DNA from: Candidatus Woykebacteria bacterium
GTDB lineage: Bacteria > Patescibacteriota > Microgenomatia > Woykebacterales > RBG-16-39-9b
Reading direction: 5' to 3'
Length of the DNA stretch: 64,000 bases
Assembly: GCA_040876345.1 (NCBI GenBank)
Contig: JBBDPM010000001.1
Location: 116,688-180,687, forward strand
A program made the translations under genes and the position numbers. The notes beneath the pieces were generated by a model. The model was not told the DNA's origin. It saw nothing but the letters and a program-made list of their open reading frames with translations, and ran no database searches. Below, piece after piece: positions 49,336-56,643 of this stretch. Numbering within the stretch: position 1 is the first letter of the stretch; each line of letters opens with the position of its first letter.

Positions 49336-49818
49336 ATGAAGTGTCCGTATTGTTCAAATTTTGATACTGCCGTGATGGACTCGCGTGACAGCGAGGATCT
49401 TGGCTCCATTCGCCGCCGCCGGGAGTGCTTGAAATGCAGTAAGCGTTTCACCACCTATGAGCGGATTGAAATGATCGACTTAGCTATTTTGAAAAAAGAC
49501 GGTAGAAGAGAGAATTTTGATCGAAACAAGCTGCTTTTGGGTTTTAAAAAAGCCACGGAAAAGCGGCCCGTAAGCTTAGAAGATATTGATAATGCTGTGG
49601 ATGCGATTGAGAGGGAATTGCGAAGAAAAGATAGTACGGAGATTCCAAGTACCGTGGTTGGTGAGATTGTGATGAGAAAGCTCAAGGCCTTGGACAAAGT
49701 AGCTTACATCCGCTTCGCCAGTGTCTATCGAAGTTTTGAGGATGTTGCGTCTTTTGAAAAAGAAATCAAGAGCCTTTTAAATAAGACTGGTAGTAAGAAG
49801 GCCGTAACAACTAATTAA
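49336..49818 (+). CDS. nrdR: Transcriptional repressor NrdR
   Basis: N-terminal zinc ribbon (CPYC..CLKC) and an ATP-cone domain. 160 aa. Confidence 0.9.
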   Translation: MKCPYCSNFDTAVMDSRDSEDLGSIRRRRECLKCSKRFTTYERIEMIDLAILKKDGRRENFDRNKLLLGFKKATEKRPVSLEDIDNAVDAIERELRRKDSTEIPSTVVGEIVMRKLKALDKVAYIRFASVYRSFEDVASFEKEIKSLLNKTGSKKAVTTN

Positions 49819-49839: not shown

Positions 49840-52347
49840 ATGGCTAAAGTAAAAACAACTCAGCGGATAGCGACAAAGGAAGGATTTCGATTTAATCCAA
49901 AACTTCAAGTTGAGCTCGAAAGTTTAGTTGGTGATAGCGCCCAAACTACTTTGGAAGGAGTCCGCCAAACAGTTTTTCGTGATCGCTATTCTTTGAAAGA
50001 CGCTGAGGGCGCTTCTATCGAAGAGCACCCTGAGCAGATGTGGAAAAGGGTTGCGGCTGGCATCGCTCAGGTAGAAAAGGCCTCTCCAAAACAAAAAGAA
50101 TGGACCGAGAAATTTTATGGAGCTCTCAAGGATTTCAAATTTGTCCCCGGTGGTAGAATCCTCTCGGGCGCCGGCACACCTTACGAAGTAACTTTCTATA
50201 ACTGTTTTGTAATTCCCTCGCCTCATGATTCCCGAGACGGAATAATTGATAACTTGAAAATAATGGTGGATATTATGTCAAGGAGCGGTGGAGTTGGAAT
50301 AAACCTCTCTTCCTTACGCCCTCGGGGCGCCCGGGTCAAAAAAGTAAACGGTACGAGCTCCGGGCCAGTAAATTGGGCCGAGCTTTACTCCACAGCCACT
50401 CACGATGTTATCCAGCAAGGTGGTACTCGTCGTGGAGCCTTGATGCTGATGATTAATGATTGGCATCCAGATGTTGAGGAGTTTATCGAGGTTAAGAAAG
50501 ACCTTTCCCGCATCAATGGTGCAAACCTTTCCGTCTGTGTTTCCGATGCTTTCATGGAAGCTGTTAAGAAAAATGGAGATTGGCAACTAGCCTTCCCGGA
50601 TATTTCAGATCCCGAGTACGATAAAGTTTGGGATGGAGACATCGATAAATGGAAGAGCCTTGGGAAGAAGGTTAATGTCTACCGAACAGTTAAGGCAGCT
50701 GAAGTCTGGGACAAGATTTGCCACGCTGCTTGGGCGTCAGCTGAGCCAGGCCTTCACTTTATCGACAGAAGCAATAACCGTAGCAATACTTGGTATTTTG
50801 AAAAACTAATCTCCACTAACCCTTGCGGCGAGCAACCACTTGGAGCCTGGGCGGTTTGCAATCTAGCATCCGTGAGCTTGCCCGCTTTCGTCGAAAATGG
50901 GGAAATGAATTACCAGAAGCTTTACGAGAATGTAAAAGTGGCCATCCGCTTTATGGATAACGTAATTGAGGCAACCGGTTACTATTACGATGAAAACAAA
51001 AAGCAGCAAGAAGGAATCCGCCGGGTCGGGCTCTCAGGGATGGGTTTAGGAGACGCTCTTATTCTCCTTAAGCAAAGATACGGATCAAAAGAAGCGGAGC
51101 CGACAGTTGAGAAAATTTACAAAACTATAAGAGACGCTGCTTATGAGTCATCGGCTGAGCTTGCGGCCGAAAAAGGGGCTTTCCCCAATTTTGACAAAGA
51201 AAAATATCTGCAAGGGCATTTCATCAAAAAACTTCCGGAGAGAATCAAAGAGAAAATTCGCAAAAACGGTATTCGTAACGCAGTGCTGTTGACGCAAGCA
51301 CCAACTGGTACTACTTCCCTTGTTTCGGGAGTCTCCTCTGGAATTGAGCCAGTTTATGATTTTGCCATGACCCGAAGGGACCGCACTGGAGAACACATGA
51401 TTTACCACCCGCTTTATCAAAAATGGCTGGAGGATAATCCTGGGAAAGAACCACCGGAATATTTTGTTTCGGCCAATGATTTGACTCCTGAGGAGCACGT
51501 GCGGATGCAAGCAATTGTTCAGGAATACACGGATTCTTCAATCTCCAAGACAGTCAATGCTCCGGAGACCCACAGTGTGGAAGATGTCAAACAGCTCTAT
51601 ACACTAGCGTATGAGCTTGGTTGTAAAGGAATTACTTACATGAGGGATGGATCTCGTGAAGGAGTACTCTCGCACGGTACTGAGACCAAGAAAGAAACAG
51701 CCGAGGCTGGTAACGGCCATAGCGCTGAGCAGGTGCCCGTTCACCTTCGCAAGAGACCAAATTATCTAAATGGAATTACAAGAAGAATTCAAACTCCAGT
51801 GGGGCACGCTTTTGTTACCATCAATGAAGATGAGAATAGGAATCCGTTTGAAGTATTCGTTAATGTCGGCAAGGCCGGAAGTGATATAACCGCCGATGCT
51901 GAGGCTATTGGTCGTTTGATATCTTTGGCCCTTCGCATTCCAACCGGCTACTCGTCCAAAGAAGTCGCCCAACAAGTGGTCAATCAACTCACCGGAATTG
52001 GTGGTAGCCGCCAGCAGGGGTTTGGGCCCAACCGTGTCCACTCTTTGGGAGATGCCATATCTAAAGTTCTCGCCGAGTACTTGGGGTCCGAGAGCACCTA
52101 TCCAGAAGTTGAGCTTAATGGAAATGGCCATGCAAAGCCAAATGGAAACGGCAAGACAGTTAGCGTAGAACAGCCCGAAGTCAAAGAAACTCCCCAAGTA
52201 ATTGACCCGCCTCAGGATGTTTCGCAGTCGACTGCCCTACATCTTGATACCGCCAGGCGCGACATGTGCCCAAAATGCGGAGTCGCCAGTTTCGTCTACG
52301 AAGAGGGCTGCAAGAAGTGTTACAGTTGTGGACACTCGGAGTGCTAA
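49840..52347 (+). CDS. nrdJ: Class II (adenosylcobalamin-dependent) ribonucleotide reductase
   Basis: 835 aa. RNR barrel motifs (NCFV, GGTRRGALM, NPCGEQPL), no adjacent NrdB or NrdD/G, and a C-terminal zinc ribbon (CPKCG..CKKCYSCG) as in monomeric/dimeric NrdJ. Confidence 0.8.
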   Translation: MAKVKTTQRIATKEGFRFNPKLQVELESLVGDSAQTTLEGVRQTVFRDRYSLKDAEGASIEEHPEQMWKRVAAGIAQVEKASPKQKEWTEKFYGALKDFKFVPGGRILSGAGTPYEVTFYNCFVIPSPHDSRDGIIDNLKIMVDIMSRSGGVGINLSSLRPRGARVKKVNGTSSGPVNWAELYSTATHDVIQQGGTRRGALMLMINDWHPDVEEFIEVKKDLSRINGANLSVCVSDAFMEAVKKNGDWQLAFPDISDPEYDKVWDGDIDKWKSLGKKVNVYRTVKAAEVWDKICHAAWASAEPGLHFIDRSNNRSNTWYFEKLISTNPCGEQPLGAWAVCNLASVSLPAFVENGEMNYQKLYENVKVAIRFMDNVIEATGYYYDENKKQQEGIRRVGLSGMGLGDALILLKQRYGSKEAEPTVEKIYKTIRDAAYESSAELAAEKGAFPNFDKEKYLQGHFIKKLPERIKEKIRKNGIRNAVLLTQAPTGTTSLVSGVSSGIEPVYDFAMTRRDRTGEHMIYHPLYQKWLEDNPGKEPPEYFVSANDLTPEEHVRMQAIVQEYTDSSISKTVNAPETHSVEDVKQLYTLAYELGCKGITYMRDGSREGVLSHGTETKKETAEAGNGHSAEQVPVHLRKRPNYLNGITRRIQTPVGHAFVTINEDENRNPFEVFVNVGKAGSDITADAEAIGRLISLALRIPTGYSSKEVAQQVVNQLTGIGGSRQQGFGPNRVHSLGDAISKVLAEYLGSESTYPEVELNGNGHAKPNGNGKTVSVEQPEVKETPQVIDPPQDVSQSTALHLDTARRDMCPKCGVASFVYEEGCKKCYSCGHSEC

Positions 52348-52348
52348 A

Positions 52349-52732
52349 ATGAAGATCAAGATACTTAGTGTAGAAGAGTTTGAGATTTTTGATAAACTTG
52401 GAACCACGGAAAGGTTCGAACTCAGTTCACCTTTTAAATCTGTAACCAAGCCGCCATCAGCAATTACAATTGGTTTGAGATCGGCTGTTTCAGGAACCGC
52501 TACCTATGCAGAAGCTAAATTTTATCGGATTGGAGATGAAAGAGATTTAAAACAGGGTGTCTTGATAAACGTGGATACGTATAGAGCTTGGCCGCACAGT
52601 AGATTAATTGAAGGTCCTATAAAAGACGTTGATCACCACATGTATACTTATAAGAATTTTGAAGAATTCCTAGATAAATTAAGGTTGTTGGAAGAGCAAA
52701 GACAAAGGAAGATGCTTGACAACAAGCTTTAG
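52349..52732 (+). CDS. Hypothetical protein
   Basis: ATG overlaps the nrdJ stop. 127 aa. The track's 5' extension into nrdJ is rejected. Confidence 0.4.
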   Translation: MKIKILSVEEFEIFDKLGTTERFELSSPFKSVTKPPSAITIGLRSAVSGTATYAEAKFYRIGDERDLKQGVLINVDTYRAWPHSRLIEGPIKDVDHHMYTYKNFEEFLDKLRLLEEQRQRKMLDNKL

Positions 52733-52773
52733 GAAATTGTAGAGTAGTCATACTTTAAAAATTTATCCGACGT

Positions 52774-52865
52774 CCGCCAGCTGGCGGAGCGGAGTCAGAA
52801 GCTCCGAAGTCTGTGAAACTCAGACACTGTGCCGCAACCGTTAAAGTCGGGTCGAAGGCTTCTGA
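52774..52865 (+). promoter_or_regulatory. Structured 5' leader, candidate cobalamin-riboswitch-like aptamer
   Basis: Perfect palindrome CCGCCAGCTGGCGG. Hairpins GGAGC..GCTCC and GTCTG-UGAAACU-CAGAC. A long-range 8-bp pairing UCAGAAGC/GCUUCUGA. The segment GCCGCAACCGUUAAAGUCGGG resembles the conserved CCGCcACUGUAAG core. No canonical B12 box was seen. Confidence 0.3.
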
Positions 52866-52898
52866 TTTAACATGCTTCGAGCAAAGTTAAGTTTTTGA

Positions 52899-52927
52899 AA
52901 CCTTCTTTTAGCTCGAGAAGGTTTTTT
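52899..52927 (+). terminator. Intrinsic terminator / attenuator (8-bp stem plus a 6-U tract) inside the leader
   Basis: AACCTTCT-tttagctcg-AGAAGGTT followed by TTTTTT. Confidence 0.55.
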
Positions 52928-52931
52928 GGTG

Positions 52932-52959
52932 GCCTTCTTTGCTTGCAAGTAAAGAAGGC
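52932..52959 (+). promoter_or_regulatory. RBS-sequestering hairpin immediately upstream of the DUF4430 gene
   Basis: GCCTTCTTT-gcttgcaagt-AAAGAAGGC. The right arm contains the SD AAAGAAGG, 5 nt before the ATG at 52963. Confidence 0.45.
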
Positions 52960-52962
52960 TTT

Positions 52963-53598
52963 ATGTTTTTAAAACTAAAAAATCTTCTGCAGAAAAAATT
53001 CATTTTGATTTTTGCGCTCGTGTTTGCCACTGCTCTTTTGGTGGCACCAAAGTTTTTAGCAGATAAACAGGAATCTAATCCCCAATCATCAAAGACTGAG
53101 GTTAGTGACCAAACTGATTTCGAAGAGGCTCTTACTAATCAAACCGATATTACATCAGTTGATCACGAAAATCCTAAGGAGCAAGTAGGTGGTTCTAAAA
53201 AGATCCAAGGGACCACTACCCAACAAACAACAAAGTCGAACAATACACCAACCACAAAAAAACCCACCTCATCTTCGCAGGCATCTGTCATACAAGAAAT
53301 TGCCCTGAATATTAATACTGGCAGCGCAAATTATTCTTATTCAGTTGCTCGGGCAAAGAGTATGACTGTATATGATGTTTTAGTTAAAGCAAGCAACGAA
53401 AATAAATTCTCGCTTGTTTCCAGTTGGTACGGAGCACCTTTGAATAGCCAATACATTATCGAAATCCACGGTTTCAATTGCGGGTGTTGGACATACACCC
53501 TCAAAGATAAATACGGTGTAAAAGTTCCTGGCTCAGGGGAAGGTGCGTCTTTAGACACCGTGAAACCTGGAAATATTATTATTTGGAAAACAACCTAA
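52963..53598 (+). CDS. Secreted DUF4430-domain protein (transcobalamin / intrinsic-factor beta-domain-like), putative corrinoid-binding
   Basis: ATG start with SD (the track's TTG 52939 start is rejected). Signal peptide/TM, Thr/Gln-rich linker, then ..YSVARAKSMTVYDVLVKAS..GAPLNSQYIIEIHG..CGCWTY.. fitting DUF4430. Confidence 0.5.
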   Translation: MFLKLKNLLQKKFILIFALVFATALLVAPKFLADKQESNPQSSKTEVSDQTDFEEALTNQTDITSVDHENPKEQVGGSKKIQGTTTQQTTKSNNTPTTKKPTSSSQASVIQEIALNINTGSANYSYSVARAKSMTVYDVLVKASNENKFSLVSSWYGAPLNSQYIIEIHGFNCGCWTYTLKDKYGVKVPGSGEGASLDTVKPGNIIIWKTT

Positions 53599-53609
53599 AG
53601 GAGGTAAAC

Positions 53610-54878
53610 ATGTCTAAAAAATTTAAAATATTATCTGCACTTACAACAAGTAGTTTGGTCGCAGGGTCGTTGCTGCCAATGACTATCTTTGCAGTTACCC
53701 CAGATATGAGTAGCAATATAAATTCTGCCGTAGATTATTTAAAATCGCAGCAGGAAACATCAGGAAAGATTTCGGGCTTTGGGACGGAAACCTCGTGGGC
53801 GATTATGGGTTTTGCTGCGGCAGGAATTGACCCTGAAACAATTGAAACAAATGGAAACTCCTTAGTTGACTATATTAGAGCAAATCCCCCAGCAAGCTCC
53901 ACCCCAACTGCCTGGGAGCGAGATATATTGGCAATAACAGCTGCTGGTGAAAATCCTTACAATTTTGGTGGGACAAACTACATAAAGACACTTGAGTCTT
54001 TTGCAGCTGGCGGGCAACTTGGAGGTAATACACTTCTCAATGATGATACTTTCGGAGTACTCGCCTTGATTTCGGCCGGACCATCTGCTGATCAACAGAT
54101 AATTTCAGATTCGGTTAACTTTATTATCGCCAATCAAAACGCTGATGGAGGATTGAGTTGGTCCACCTCAGGTGATAGTGATACGAACGATACCGCCATT
54201 GCAATCATGGCCCTGAACGCTGCCAAAAGCGCCGGTTTTACAAATGTTGGGTTAGGTACAAGCTTGGATGAGGCTAAAAATTATATGCTCACATCCCAAA
54301 ATCCCGATGGTGGTTGGTCCTTTACACCAGGGGACACATCAGACGCCTCCTCCACCGCTTGGGGCATTCAAGCAATGCTTGGAGATGATATGGTAGTTAG
54401 TAATGCTTTAAATTTTCTTGTCAGCCTTCAGAATCTGGACGGTTCTGTTAGCTGGATGAGTGGGTTTGGTGGGGACACTTTTACAAGTGCCTATGCGCTC
54501 TCTGCTTTTGCCCAGAGAGCTTTTCCGGTTGGAGCCTTTACCCAAGAGTTTCCGGGTGATCCGGGTCAAGTGCCGGGTAACCAGGACCCTCAAGACGGTG
54601 AAGAAGAGAACCCAAGAGACTCAGATGATGACGGTGATGTTCTTTCAGCAACCGATACTAACGATGATGGAAAAGTGTTGGCAGCTACTTTACCAGACAC
54701 TGGTATCGCTTATGAGCCGAAGTCTATGGTAAGAGCTCTTGATCAACCTTTCGGGAGTCAAAAAGATTCTAGATTGCGCTTCTTTGGATTATTTCTTGCT
54801 TTGGGCAGCAGTTCTGCTCTGGCTGGAGTCTCTCTTCGATGTGTCTATAAGAAGCTAGTTGAATATGATATAAACTAA
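53610..54878 (+). CDS. Surface protein with alpha/alpha-toroid prenyltransferase/squalene-oxidase (QxxDGGW) repeats and a C-terminal LPxTG-like sorting signal
   Basis: SD AAAGGAGG before the ATG at 53610. Signal peptide. Repeats QNADGGLSWS, QNPDGGWSF, QNLDGSVSW. An acidic linker, then LPDTG, a hydrophobic segment, and RCVYKK. Confidence 0.6.
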   Translation: MSKKFKILSALTTSSLVAGSLLPMTIFAVTPDMSSNINSAVDYLKSQQETSGKISGFGTETSWAIMGFAAAGIDPETIETNGNSLVDYIRANPPASSTPTAWERDILAITAAGENPYNFGGTNYIKTLESFAAGGQLGGNTLLNDDTFGVLALISAGPSADQQIISDSVNFIIANQNADGGLSWSTSGDSDTNDTAIAIMALNAAKSAGFTNVGLGTSLDEAKNYMLTSQNPDGGWSFTPGDTSDASSTAWGIQAMLGDDMVVSNALNFLVSLQNLDGSVSWMSGFGGDTFTSAYALSAFAQRAFPVGAFTQEFPGDPGQVPGNQDPQDGEEENPRDSDDDGDVLSATDTNDDGKVLAATLPDTGIAYEPKSMVRALDQPFGSQKDSRLRFFGLFLALGSSSALAGVSLRCVYKKLVEYDIN

Positions 54879-54882
54879 CAAA

Positions 54883-55482
54883 ATGAGAAAATTTATTGAG
54901 TTAGCAGCAAGTTCAGCATTAATAATTGGGTCTGCAGTCGGTCTTAGACTTATACCGCATATGCCAAACTTTGCTCCAGTTGGGGCAATGGCTCTTTTTG
55001 GCGGTGCTTATCTGCCTAGAAAATACGCTCTATTGGCTCTATTTGCAGTGATGCTGGTCTCCGATTATCTACTTCTCTACTTTCACCCCTTCTCGGCGGA
55101 TCTAGTTGATTTTTCTAGGTTCTATGGACCATCCAGCCTTATTCATTCGACGACAGTTTTTGTCTACGTAAGTTTCTTCATTAATTTCCTAATCGGCCGT
55201 TGGATTGCTCGGAAAAGATCAGTTGAAAGAGTGGCAGCTGGGGCATTGGCAGCGTCAATTCAATTTTTCATTGTTACAAACTTTGGTGTCTGGGTTGCTG
55301 GTGGCTACTCTAGATATCTCTACGGGCTTTTGCAAAGCTACATTATGGCCTTGCCATTTTTCCGGGGGACACTTTTTGGAGACCTTTTTTACACAGGGCT
55401 TTTCTTTGGCAGTTATGAGGTGGTAAAATCTCTAATTGTTAGAAGAAGTTTGGCTCATAAGGAGGCTAAAGTTTATGGCTAA
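54883..55482 (+). CDS. ECF-transporter S-component-like membrane protein (solitary)
   Basis: The N-terminal ALIIGSAVGLRLIPHMPNFAPVGAMALFGGAYL matches the ECF S-component (PF12822-like) start. 5-6 TM helices, 199 aa. Confidence 0.45.
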   Translation: MRKFIELAASSALIIGSAVGLRLIPHMPNFAPVGAMALFGGAYLPRKYALLALFAVMLVSDYLLLYFHPFSADLVDFSRFYGPSSLIHSTTVFVYVSFFINFLIGRWIARKRSVERVAAGALAASIQFFIVTNFGVWVAGGYSRYLYGLLQSYIMALPFFRGTLFGDLFYTGLFFGSYEVVKSLIVRRSLAHKEAKVYG

Positions 55483-55717
55483 ATCAGAGGAGACCTTTAA
55501 AGTTCGTGGGGAAGACGTAATTAAGAAAGTTAAAGAACTTATTAAAGAAGGCAACGTCCGAAAGATTACTATAAAAGACAAAGCTGGCAAAACCATTGCT
55601 GAGTTTCCCCTGACTATCGGAGTTCTTGGCACTTTGATCGCCCCAATCTTGGCAGCAGTTGGGGCAATTGCTGCTCTAGTGGCTGAATGCACGATTGCAG
55701 TTGAGCGTAGAGAATGA
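55475..55717 (+). CDS. DUF4342-domain protein
   Basis: SD AAGGAGG before the ATG at 55475. Pattern VRGEDVIKKVKELIKEGNVRKITIKDKAGKTIAEFPLTIGVLG..AAVGAIAALV typical of DUF4342. Confidence 0.55.
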   Translation: MAKSEETFKVRGEDVIKKVKELIKEGNVRKITIKDKAGKTIAEFPLTIGVLGTLIAPILAAVGAIAALVAECTIAVERRE

Positions 55718-56643
55718 GGATTGTTTCCACTCTTCCGACTGCCACCGAAATCATTTATCAGCTAGGATTAGGATCTAGCTTGGTTGGTGTTTCCCACGAA
55801 TGCAACTACCCTAAAGAAGCTTCTAAAAAACCCAGAGTTTCCAAGGTTGATTTTGATTACGGCACTGCTGCATCTTCCGAAATTGACGACTATGTTGGTG
55901 AAAAGATGCACAATCACCATAGTCTTTATCAGCTAAAGGACGAATTGGTTACCGCTCTTGCCCCAACCCATTTAATTACTCAAAAACTTTGTGATGTGTG
56001 TGCTGTTACACCAAACGATGTTCAGAGAGTTATTAAGTCACTAACAGAAAAACCAGAACTAATAACTTTAAATCCAACAAACCTCGAAGAAATCCTTAAA
56101 GATATTCTAATGGTCGGCTCTTCCTTGGGTCGGGGCAAGGAAGCTATCGAACTGGTAGAGAAATTGCGGTCAAAGATTGAACAAATAAAACTTAAAACTC
56201 ATAAGCTTCAGCGTAAAACTATCTTTTGCGTTGAATGGATCGATCCGCCGTATGCATCAGGACATTGGATACCGGAAATGGTTGATATTGCTGGCGGATC
56301 CGAAGTTCTCGGTTGGAAGGGGAAGCCCTCCCGAAAGGTTAGCTGGGAGGATGTGCTAAAAGCCGATCCAGAAATTTTGGTTTTTATGCCCTGTGGCTTT
56401 TCACTAGAGAAAACAATATTGGAAATTCGAAACTGCTTGTCTAAAGATTCAGCGTTCAGGAGTCTTAGGGCTATTAGAAATATTCAGGTTTGGGTCGTGG
56501 ATGGACCAAGTTACTTTAATCAATCAGGACCTCGAGTGCTTGCCAAAGGAGTTGAGATCCTTGCCAAAATAATCCACCCTGAGGTTTTTGAATCTCCAAC
56601 AAAAGCTGAAGCAACAAAACTTTCCTCAACTTACTTTCTCTAA
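55714..56643 (+). CDS. BtuF-like cobalamin / class III periplasmic-binding-protein fold protein, with no signal peptide
   Basis: RIVSTLPTATEIIYQLGLGSSLVGVSHECNYP aligns with the BtuF N-terminus ([30 protein letters not shown]). The C-terminal ..GPRVLAKGVEILAKII matches ..SPRIILAAQQL. It starts directly at MRIV with no leader peptide. Confidence 0.55.
   Translation: MRIVSTLPTATEIIYQLGLGSSLVGVSHECNYPKEASKKPRVSKVDFDYGTAASSEIDDYVGEKMHNHHSLYQLKDELVTALAPTHLITQKLCDVCAVTPNDVQRVIKSLTEKPELITLNPTNLEEILKDILMVGSSLGRGKEAIELVEKLRSKIEQIKLKTHKLQRKTIFCVEWIDPPYASGHWIPEMVDIAGGSEVLGWKGKPSRKVSWEDVLKADPEILVFMPCGFSLEKTILEIRNCLSKDSAFRSLRAIRNIQVWVVDGPSYFNQSGPRVLAKGVEILAKIIHPEVFESPTKAEATKLSSTYFL

Follow-up and report, generated by a model that had tools for sequence, protein, structure and literature searches.

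What is the function of the 230-nucleotide (nt) intergenic spacer at 52733-52962 in a 64,000-nt stretch of Candidatus Woykebacteria DNA (contig JBBDPM010000001.1, forward-strand positions 116,688 to 180,687; hereafter the window, in whose coordinates all positions are given)? The spacer lies between a small open reading frame (ORF) 3' of nrdJ and a gene that encodes a 211-amino acid (aa) protein and starts with ATG at 52963. A first-pass annotation of this DNA, which gave the spacer the same length, described a highly structured leader and proposed a corrinoid-responsive riboswitch, possibly a variant without the canonical B12 box. Each of the sequence features that it listed was found again, at its coordinates or close to them. 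As far as sequence comparison can tell, this proposal is supported by covariance model (CM) matches, by covariation and by the B12-related gene context. The leader is likely, in our view, to be a cobalamin riboswitch that shuts down an operon for B12 scavenging once enough of the cofactor is available. In its build, the element belongs to the cobalamin riboswitch clan, and it very probably also works as one of its members. Judging from the copies collected here, it is a so far unrecorded and unusually small variant of this known riboswitch group, and has so far been seen only on Patescibacteria-type contigs.

The aptamer and its Rfam matches

The 238-nt leader folds with -81 kcal/mol (z = -4.9 compared with dinucleotide shuffles), and none of 200 shuffles folded as well. 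The following aptamer features were assigned, with P denoting helices, L their loops and J the junction strands:

52794-52866, plus strand: cobalamin aptamer, 73 nt, four-way junction
52794-52803 paired with 52857-52866: P1, 10 pairs
52804-52808: J3/4, CCGAA
52809-52825: P4/L4 T-loop hairpin with the loop UGAAACU
52828-52836: P5/L5
52838-52850: P6/L6
52851-52856: J6/3, GUCGAA

All helices of the four-way junction of clan CL00101 (the closing helix, P4, P5 and P6) are present both in the CM alignment and in the minimum free energy (MFE) fold. The junction strands are of the six-nucleotide type (CCGAAG and GUCGAA), and P6 consists of 3 base pairs (bp) capped by a plain loop of 7-8 nt. The long-range pairing that had been annotated as 8 bp is present as P1, which comprises 10 pairs, and the hairpin described with a UGAAAnU loop is P4/L4.

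In a permissive Rfam scan of 52650-53050, RF01689 (AdoCbl-II; AdoCbl, adenosylcobalamin) matched over its full length at 52795-52865 with 34.8 bits (gathering score 36.5; E 1.2e-6), and nothing else was found below E 0.04. The alignment covered the P4 T-loop, P5, P6 and the core. Eight model positions, which span the 5' strand of P3 and part of J1/3, were deleted, and the 3' strand of P3 was left without a pairing partner. The segment GCCGCAACCGUUAAAGUCGG at 52831-52850, which the first-pass annotation had likened to the cobalamin riboswitch core, aligned to the conserved core of RF01689. Together with GUCUGUGAAACUCAGAC, it matches the upper-case consensus of this family (the L4 T-loop GUGAAAnUC and the GCnACnGU...AGUCnG core around P5/P6). 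The RF01482 match in the window was outscored by the RF01689 match and suppressed. RF00174 was not the best clan match, and the 73 nt leave no room for a P2 module, P7-P11 or a B12 box. Among the orthologous leaders, L001/L003 matched RF01689 with 29.1 bits, whereas the closest ortholog, L010, matched RF01482 over its full length with 47.6 bits (gathering score 50), including the 3' hairpin CCUUCGAGCAAAGG and with 16 model positions of the P6 extension replaced by 1 nt. The Rfam models named by the first-pass annotation thus give matches in the window and in L010, both below gathering score.

The traits of RF01482 that were found in the L010 alignment, and as the same features in the window, are the paired or mismatched J1/3, the six-nucleotide junctions and the P13 hairpin; the short P6 hairpin extension and a score of at least 50 bits are missing. 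The traits of RF01689 that are missing are the score of 36.5 bits and the bulged J1/3 between P1 and a separate P3. The element is called a variant because it scores below the curated cut-offs of both class-II Rfam families and lacks, for each of them, one peripheral feature that defines the family. Its position between the RF01689 and RF01482 models may explain why the scores fall just under both thresholds. A CGA/UCG mini-helix (52805-52807 with 52852-52854) was considered as P3 and rejected, as it is invariant in 24 copies and the RF01482 alignment makes these residues junction strands.

Copies of the variant and covariation

Homologs of the 211-aa protein led to loci L001-L011 and L013, which have the same gene order and a homologous leader. 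The same operon gene order 3' of the leader was found at six further loci (L001, L004, L010, L011, L012 and L013). When metagenomes were scanned with the pattern GTGCCGCWACYGT...TCGAGCAA, at least 120 loci were returned, about 100 of which look like riboswitches. When 20 loci from this core pattern were tested, 14 passed the gathering score of RF01689, RF01482 or RF00174; the window-like copies L018, L110, L118, L123 and L131, plus L028, remained below the Rfam gathering scores. One genome per GTDB species was also scanned with the signature CCGAAG...TGCCGCWACYGT...RGGTCG. This gave 36 loci, of which 16 are real and come from Woyke-, Davies- and Levybacteria, unclassified Patescibacteria and five AT-rich records labeled as uncultured Gammaproteobacteria. 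Another 20, along with about 18 loci from the metagenomes, are GC-rich, lie in coding sequence and were discarded as chance matches. The five Gammaproteobacteria records (L142, L143, L149, L150 and L159, all GTDB species representatives) have AT-rich leaders almost identical to those of metagenome-assembled genomes (MAGs) of Daviesbacteria and other Patescibacteria, and their labels may be wrong.

In total, 25 distinct window-type aptamers were obtained, all on AT-rich Patescibacteria-type contigs. Read 5' to 3', their consensus is P1 (9-10 bp, with an invariant terminal U-G), CCGAAG, P4 GUCUG[UGAAACU]CAGAC, rCUG, UGCCGC, AA, P6 CCG[6-8 nt]CGG, GUCG(A/C)A and the 3' strand of P1. In 24 aligned copies, 97% of the cells held standard pairs, compared with 32-47% in slid controls, and none of 500 shuffles reached the observed values. 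Changes on both sides were observed for 8 of 10 pairs in P1 and for 2 of 5 pairs in P4. P1 was one continuous helix in all 24 copies, with no separate P3. P5 and P6 were invariant, partly because the search patterns had fixed them. Across homologous leaders, covariation is clear for P1, P4 and P13 (described below). CM matches and covariation, whose joint absence the first-pass annotation had regarded as telling against a riboswitch, were therefore both found.

A covariance model, R1, was built on 20 window-type copies, with L018, L084, L143, L158 and L164 outside the training set. Window-type copies scored 89-117 bits with R1 and all other cobalamin riboswitches in the loci scored 57 bits or less, a gap that arises partly by construction. 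In the window, R1 found a sole copy with 109.7 bits. In ordinary copies, J3/4 is of the GGAA type and J6/3 is 3-4 nt long; L035 and L052 are intermediate. Because of these intermediates, the variant is the end of a continuum and not a new fold.

The genes that follow the variant elsewhere encode Cob_adeno_trans proteins (PduO-type cobalamin adenosyltransferase, E 4e-58) and DUF4430 proteins. B12-related genes are thus present in the operon here, as the first-pass annotation stated, and in its relatives. The binding of a corrinoid by the aptamer is inferred from this gene context, namely the uptake-like operon, PduO, DUF4430 and NrdJ. By analogy, a preference for AdoCbl is plausible, considering that a J1/3 bulge is absent, the junctions are IIb-like, NrdJ adjoins the leader and PduO genes follow it in sister lineages.

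Expression platform

Three hairpins follow the aptamer:

52874-52887, plus strand: P13 hairpin, GCUU-CGAGCA-AAGU
52898-52927, plus strand: intrinsic terminator T1, AAACCUUCUUUUAGCUCGAGAAGGUUUUUU, with the stem AACCUUCUU / GAGAAGGUU and U6 (9-11 bp by RNAfold)
52931-52960, plus strand: hairpin T2, 13 bp, with the Shine-Dalgarno sequence (SD) AGAAGG at 52953-52958 paired with the anti-SD CCUUCU; terminator-like in the scan

P13 has a 4-bp stem and the loop CGAGCA, and in ortholog L010 it aligns to the 3' hairpin of RF01482. It resembles the CCUUCGGGGGGAAGG hairpin of T. tengcongensis. Among 102 distinct sequences, stem positions 2-4 pair in 92/86/71%, compared with 67/64/47% in shuffled sequences. 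On its own, P13 is weak (0 to -2.9 kcal/mol). In the RNAduplex prediction, L5 (UGCCG) and L13 (CG(A)GCA) form a helix of -4.1 kcal/mol in which a single A is bulged out; the search patterns had fixed both loops. At least one unpaired nucleotide in the L5-L13 helix has been reported to be universal in the clan and to be needed for ligand dependence (PMC5028336, PMC10907184).

T1 was resolved by RNAfold one nucleotide upstream of the annotated terminator start (52899-52927). A simple consensus scanner did not list it, probably because the loop is longer than this scanner allows. A hairpin with a U-run occurs 35-50 nt after P13 in all 24 window-type leaders with enough sequence. In nine leaders of orthologous operons, the conserved blocks are P13, the T1 arms, the T1 loop segment GCUCGAG (52910-52916) and the T2 arms, and the spacers diverge. 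This GCUCGAG segment is complementary to L13 (UUCGAGC). Both it and the GCUCGAGAAGGUUUU sequence of T1 are kept in 8 of the 9 orthologous leaders, including cases in which the T1 loop has gained an extra hairpin. The GCUCGAG:L13 duplex reaches -9.1 to -11.0 kcal/mol in 8 of the 9, a stability reached by at most 1.4% of shuffles. The duplex between the P13 5' half and the T1 3' half (-9.7 to -12.2 kcal/mol) compares with -8.9 to -15.6 kcal/mol for T1 itself, and it is the pairing that RNAfold picks when the T1 5' arm is blocked.

T2 (-17.9 kcal/mol), which had been correctly described as a second hairpin that buries the downstream SD, is kept in all nine orthologous leaders, with CCUUCU/AGAAGG in the window and CCUCCU/AGGAGG in most orthologs. 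In most orthologs it is followed by U6 and is thus also terminator-like; the window has only UUU before the ATG. The P13 3' half (GAGCAAAG, GAGCAAAGG) is complementary to the T2 5' arm (CUUUGCUU, CCUUUGCUC). This duplex reaches -7.6 to -17.5 kcal/mol, and in 7 of the 9 leaders it is more stable than at least 98% of the shuffles.

From these complementarities we infer an L5-L13 kissing loop and a choice of pairings that acts as antiterminator and anti-sequestrator. In the proposed mechanism, transcription would begin at the operon's own promoter (at about 52752) and the aptamer would fold into its four-way junction. A bound corrinoid would stabilize the kissing loop between L5 (UGCCG) and L13 (CG-A-GCA) and hold the weak P13 closed. 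With P13 closed, T1 would form and transcription would stop, and in any transcript that reads through, T2 would hide the ribosome-binding site. Without ligand, the 5' half and loop of P13 (UUCGAGC) would pair with GCUCGAG(AAGG) of T1 as an antiterminator, and the 3' half (GAGCAAAG) would compete for the T2 5' arm (CUUUGCUU), which would help to expose the SD.

Some leaders carry rearrangements. Lineage-specific hairpins are inserted at the P4 tip (L004-L009 and L018), in the linker between P1 and P13 (L011, about 130 nt) and in the T1 loop (L028 and L012); the core and GCUCGAG are intact in each case. In L012 (1-330), P13, T1, T2 and the operon are kept, no aptamer is present upstream of P13 and R1 finds no match. 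This is either a rearranged leader with a lost sensor or a chimeric assembly. Two cobalamin riboswitches lie within a few kb of each other at L033, L034, L035, L078, L108, L116, L121 and L138, and at L078 and L138 one copy is of the window type and the other is ordinary.

Evidence against the mechanism and alternative explanations

Several results weigh against the interpretation given above. No Rfam family, tRNA included, reaches its gathering score in the whole 64-kb window, so that the riboswitch match falls short of the curated standards. The search patterns left little or no freedom in L5, P5, P6 and L13, and the covariation seen in the copies therefore does not bear on their pairings, the kissing loop included. 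In the window, the P13 consensus has only 4 bp including a G-U pair, and RNAfold prefers another local hairpin. In several orthologs, the long P13:T2 duplex would extend over the SD as well. The most stable fold of the leader contains the aptamer, T1 and T2 together; since this corresponds to a completely OFF state, the ON state has to arise by kinetic selection. Finally, there is a second candidate antiterminator, GAAGG of the J6/3-P1 3' strand paired with CCUUC of the T1 5' arm (-51.8 vs -49.3 kcal/mol in whole-leader folds).

The second antiterminator would belong to a classical strand exchange, in which P1 opens without ligand and the J6/3-P1 3' strand UCGAAGGC pairs with the T1 5' arm ACCUUCU. 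The freed T1 3' arm AGAAGG would then pair with the anti-SD of T2 and expose the SD, so that the register would shift in a single step through three hairpins whose arms are nearly identical. RNAfold pairs GAAGG at 52854-52858 with CCUUC of T1 when the T1 3' arm is blocked (-51.8 kcal/mol for the whole leader), and both UCGAAGGC and ACCUUCU are kept in most window-type copies. The duplex of the T1 3' arm with the anti-SD reaches -10.8 kcal/mol in the window, but just -4.6 to -6.3 kcal/mol in the orthologs. Moreover, copies with UCGCAGGC retain CCUUC terminators, and L001-type aptamers drive the same T1/T2 platform without GAAGG in their 3' part, so strand exchange cannot apply there. It also leaves the conserved GCUCGAG of the T1 loop unexplained, and overall we regard it as rather unlikely. 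A change of ligand within the cobalamin fold, either to an incomplete corrinoid (for example cobinamide) or to a compound that is not a corrinoid, is suggested by the pocket-lining strands J3/4 CCGAAG and J6/3 GUCGAA, which differ from the usual GGAA and A-N-N-N of ordinary copies, and by the discrete cluster of R1 scores (89-117 vs at most 57 bits, from a model trained on the variant). However, all associated genes concern the use, binding or adenosylation of cobalamin, and both the lengths of the junctions and the initial GUC of J6/3 agree with RF01482, a family of AdoCbl sensors (class IIb binds AdoCbl; PMC7367189), which makes a changed ligand very unlikely.

It is hardly credible that the hairpins are only terminators or stabilizers of the upstream nrdJ transcript and include no ligand sensor. 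The region does lie directly 3' of nrdJ and the small ORF and contains two terminator-like hairpins, but a conserved promoter precedes the structured part, cobalamin aptamer models match it over their full length, and P1 and P4 covary. In addition, the same leader occurs without an upstream nrdJ (L001) and before unrelated B12 genes. A decaying, non-functional remnant of a cobalamin riboswitch would account for the sub-threshold Rfam score, the weak P13 of the window and the hairpin inserted upstream; it is at odds with 25 distinct copies in several candidate phyla that have an invariant core, compensatory stem changes and a terminator that is always present, and it is equally far-fetched.

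Comparison with known cobalamin riboswitches

The cobalamin riboswitch variant described here is closest in its junction to RF01482, which we take to be class Cbl-IIb, the Enterococcus faecalis eut/EutX type. It likewise has no bulged J1/3, so that P1 runs straight into the junction, and shares the six-nucleotide J3/4, the six-nucleotide J6/3 that starts with GUC and, beyond a short linker, a P13 hairpin whose loop reads UCGAG(G/C)AA. It differs in the absence of the short P6 hairpin extension, in its score below the 50-bit gathering threshold and in its predicted action in cis on a terminator and an SD hairpin before uptake genes of Patescibacteria. The features shared with RF01689 (AdoCbl-II or 'AdoCbl variant', class Cbl-IIa, which includes the env8 hydroxocobalamin (HyCbl) riboswitch, PDB 4FRN) are the small size, the P4 T-loop GUGAAAnUC, the GCAACnGU...AGUCnG core, the simple loop of P6 and the L5-L13 kissing-loop architecture, which is predicted in the window. 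In contrast to RF01689, the variant has neither the 7-nt J1/3 internal loop nor a separate 5-bp P3, its junction strands are longer, and its L13 is complementary to a terminator segment and does not carry the ribosome-binding site. With RF00174 (class Cbl-I; T. tengcongensis, PDB 4GMA), it shares the core of the four-way junction and, by prediction, the kissing-loop logic, but not the P2 module, the P7-P11 extension or the canonical B12 box.

These differences can be read against the published class definitions (PMC7367189, PMC6158498). Cbl-I has the P2 module and a long P6 extension, Cbl-IIa has a bulged J1/3 and a P6 loop and binds methylcobalamin (MeCbl) or HyCbl, and Cbl-IIb has a paired or mismatched J1/3 and a short P6 hairpin and binds AdoCbl, with no structure available as of 2020 (PMC7367189). 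The J1/3 internal loop of class IIa is a second T-loop and a key selectivity determinant, and some members of class II, such as those of E. faecalis, lack J1/3 altogether (PMC6158498). The window-type aptamer unites the missing J1/3 bulge and the six-nucleotide J3/4 and J6/3 of Cbl-IIb with the bare P6 loop of Cbl-IIa. It is possible, and we propose it only tentatively, that the variant forms a discrete, hitherto undescribed class-II cobalamin subclass that seems restricted to Microgenomates-type Patescibacteria, with a IIb-like junction and a IIa-like bare P6 loop in ~73 nt and with P13 as a hub that gates transcription and translation.

Standard Rfam annotation misses the riboswitch here and at five other tested variant copies, and B12 regulation in B12-dependent bacteria of the candidate phyla radiation (CPR), which have reduced genomes, would therefore be overlooked. 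A null result at the Rfam gathering threshold, taken alone, would wrongly dismiss the element. Our literature search found no paper on cobalamin riboswitches in CPR/Patescibacteria within the searchable library. With its 73 nt, IIb-like junctions and no peripheral elements, the aptamer would offer a compact model for corrinoid selection in class II, and if AdoCbl is the ligand, it could be among the smallest natural AdoCbl-sensing aptamers. If P13 is indeed a hub, one ligand-stabilized tertiary contact would gate transcription and translation together. The understanding of cobalamin riboswitches is unchanged in principle. The genes found with the variant outline a candidate CPR regulon for B12 salvage, which comprises a transcobalamin-like beta-domain protein, an alpha-toroid protein, DUF6580, a BtuF-like protein, PduO and a Cys-rich protein of 380-480 aa.

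In the Daviesbacteria-type loci L137, L139, L142, L149, L150 and L158, the variant precedes proteins of 380-480 aa, several of which end in a Cys-rich CxxCG...GGCGxCxxC motif. The four that were scanned (L137, L139, L149 and L158) had no Pfam match. The Cys-rich proteins may be an uncharacterized B12-regulated family.

Promoter and 5' leader

Upstream of the aptamer, the following features were found:

52716-52745, plus strand: sigma-70-type promoter, with the -35 box TTGACA at 52716-52721, an 18-nt spacer and the -10 box TAGAGT at 52740-52745
52752-52765, plus strand: conserved 5' motif ACUUUAAAAAUUUA, between the -10 box and the aptamer
52767-52792, plus strand: GC-rich hairpin with a palindrome, which folds in the MFE structure

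The promoter matches 10 of 12 positions in a consensus scan and suggests a transcript start at about 52752. TTGACA-N17/18-TAnnnT occurs at an equal distance 5' of P1 in orthologous and related leaders. The element does not start at 52774, as annotated, but reaches upstream to the promoter. Most window-type and L001-type leaders carry a near-identical copy of ACUUUAAAAAUUUA immediately 5' of P1; the A/U-rich form ACUUUAA(A/C)AAUUUA(G) was seen in the window and in leaders L001, L010, L028, L036, L067, L078, L110 and L118. This motif could be the initial transcribed region or a binding site. As its pairing partners, L6, the A/U-rich stretch that precedes T1 and the region around the start codon were considered and dropped because, by eye, no complementarity was consistent across homologs.

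The hairpin contains the perfect 14-nt palindrome CCGCCAGCTGGCGG, which the first-pass annotation had located correctly at 52774-52787 and which has no second copy in the window, where chance alone would give 0.06 matches. The palindromic hairpin occurs only in this genome and is missing from 24 other window-type leaders and from the orthologs. By this comparison, it is a lineage-specific insertion in the 5' untranslated region, between the conserved 5' motif and P1 and outside the aptamer, and not a part of the sensor. A repeat element and a minus-strand terminator were also rejected, considering its uniqueness in the window, its absence from homologous leaders and the lack of a convergent gene. 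At the same position, L086 has a different small hairpin, UCCGGCAGUUGCCGGA, which suggests that the site between the 5' motif and P1 tolerates or favors a 5' stem-loop.

The operon and neighboring genes

The genes around the leader are as follows:

49336-49818: nrdR, an upstream context gene
49840-52347, plus strand: nrdJ, adenosylcobalamin-dependent ribonucleotide reductase (TIGR02504 NrdJ_Z, 568 bits, cut-off 399.95; also Pfam)
52963-53598, plus strand: first regulated gene, a 211-aa membrane-anchored protein
53583-56643, plus strand: remainder of the operon after the 211-aa gene
53583-54878, plus strand: alpha/alpha-toroid protein, SQHop_cyclase/prenyltransferase-like (Pfam, NCBIfam)
54883-55482, plus strand: DUF6580 membrane protein (Pfam, NCBIfam)
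55714-56643, plus strand: BtuF-like periplasmic binding protein, Peripla_BP_2 (Pfam, NCBIfam)

The operon presumably serves B12 uptake, with a putative role of its proteins in B12 transport, and the nrdJ product is the likely consumer of the imported cofactor. nrdJ also lies 5' of the leader in L004, L010 and L011. The 211-aa protein is 100% identical to an NCBI protein from a Candidatus Woykebacteria MAG (Patescibacteria/CPR lineage). It had been annotated as DUF4430. No Pfam or NCBIfam match was found, and PF14478 (DUF4430) was not matched even at E <= 10; a PDB sequence search with an alignment of the protein returned only noise. Its conserved part is the C-terminal ~100 aa, for which the AlphaFold2 model has a predicted local distance difference test score (pLDDT) of about 80 (residues 110-150). 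The best Foldseek matches of this model in the PDB were transcobalamin and its isolated beta domain (E 0.03-0.1, probability about 0.9). In the model, the C-terminal ~100 aa thus show a weak but consistent resemblance to the transcobalamin beta domain (DUF4430-like). At related loci, five proteins at the position of the 211-aa gene match PF14478 with E 1e-5 to 5e-19. Fold and synteny do point toward DUF4430, although Pfam does not confirm this family for the 211-aa protein itself.

As a pair, the beta-domain-like and toroid proteins (52963-54878) look like a transcobalamin whose two domains are encoded by separate genes. NCBIfam 'SCO2321 family membrane protein' also matches the toroid protein weakly, with 77 bits and far short of its cut-off. 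The DUF6580 protein had no match among PDB sequences that would link it to CbrT, and a literature search for DUF6580 found no papers. A tblastn search of the window for a PduO adenosyltransferase found no such gene.

The small ORF between nrdJ and the leader was listed with 176 aa (52202-52732). Its N-terminal part overlaps the end of nrdJ in another frame, and its similarity to other loci is confined to this overlap. Any real gene in this region probably starts at an internal ATG just 3' of the nrdJ stop codon (MKIKILSVEEF..., about 127 aa); this candidate has no Pfam match and no counterpart in orthologous loci. The -35 box of the operon promoter lies within the 3' end of the 176-aa ORF.

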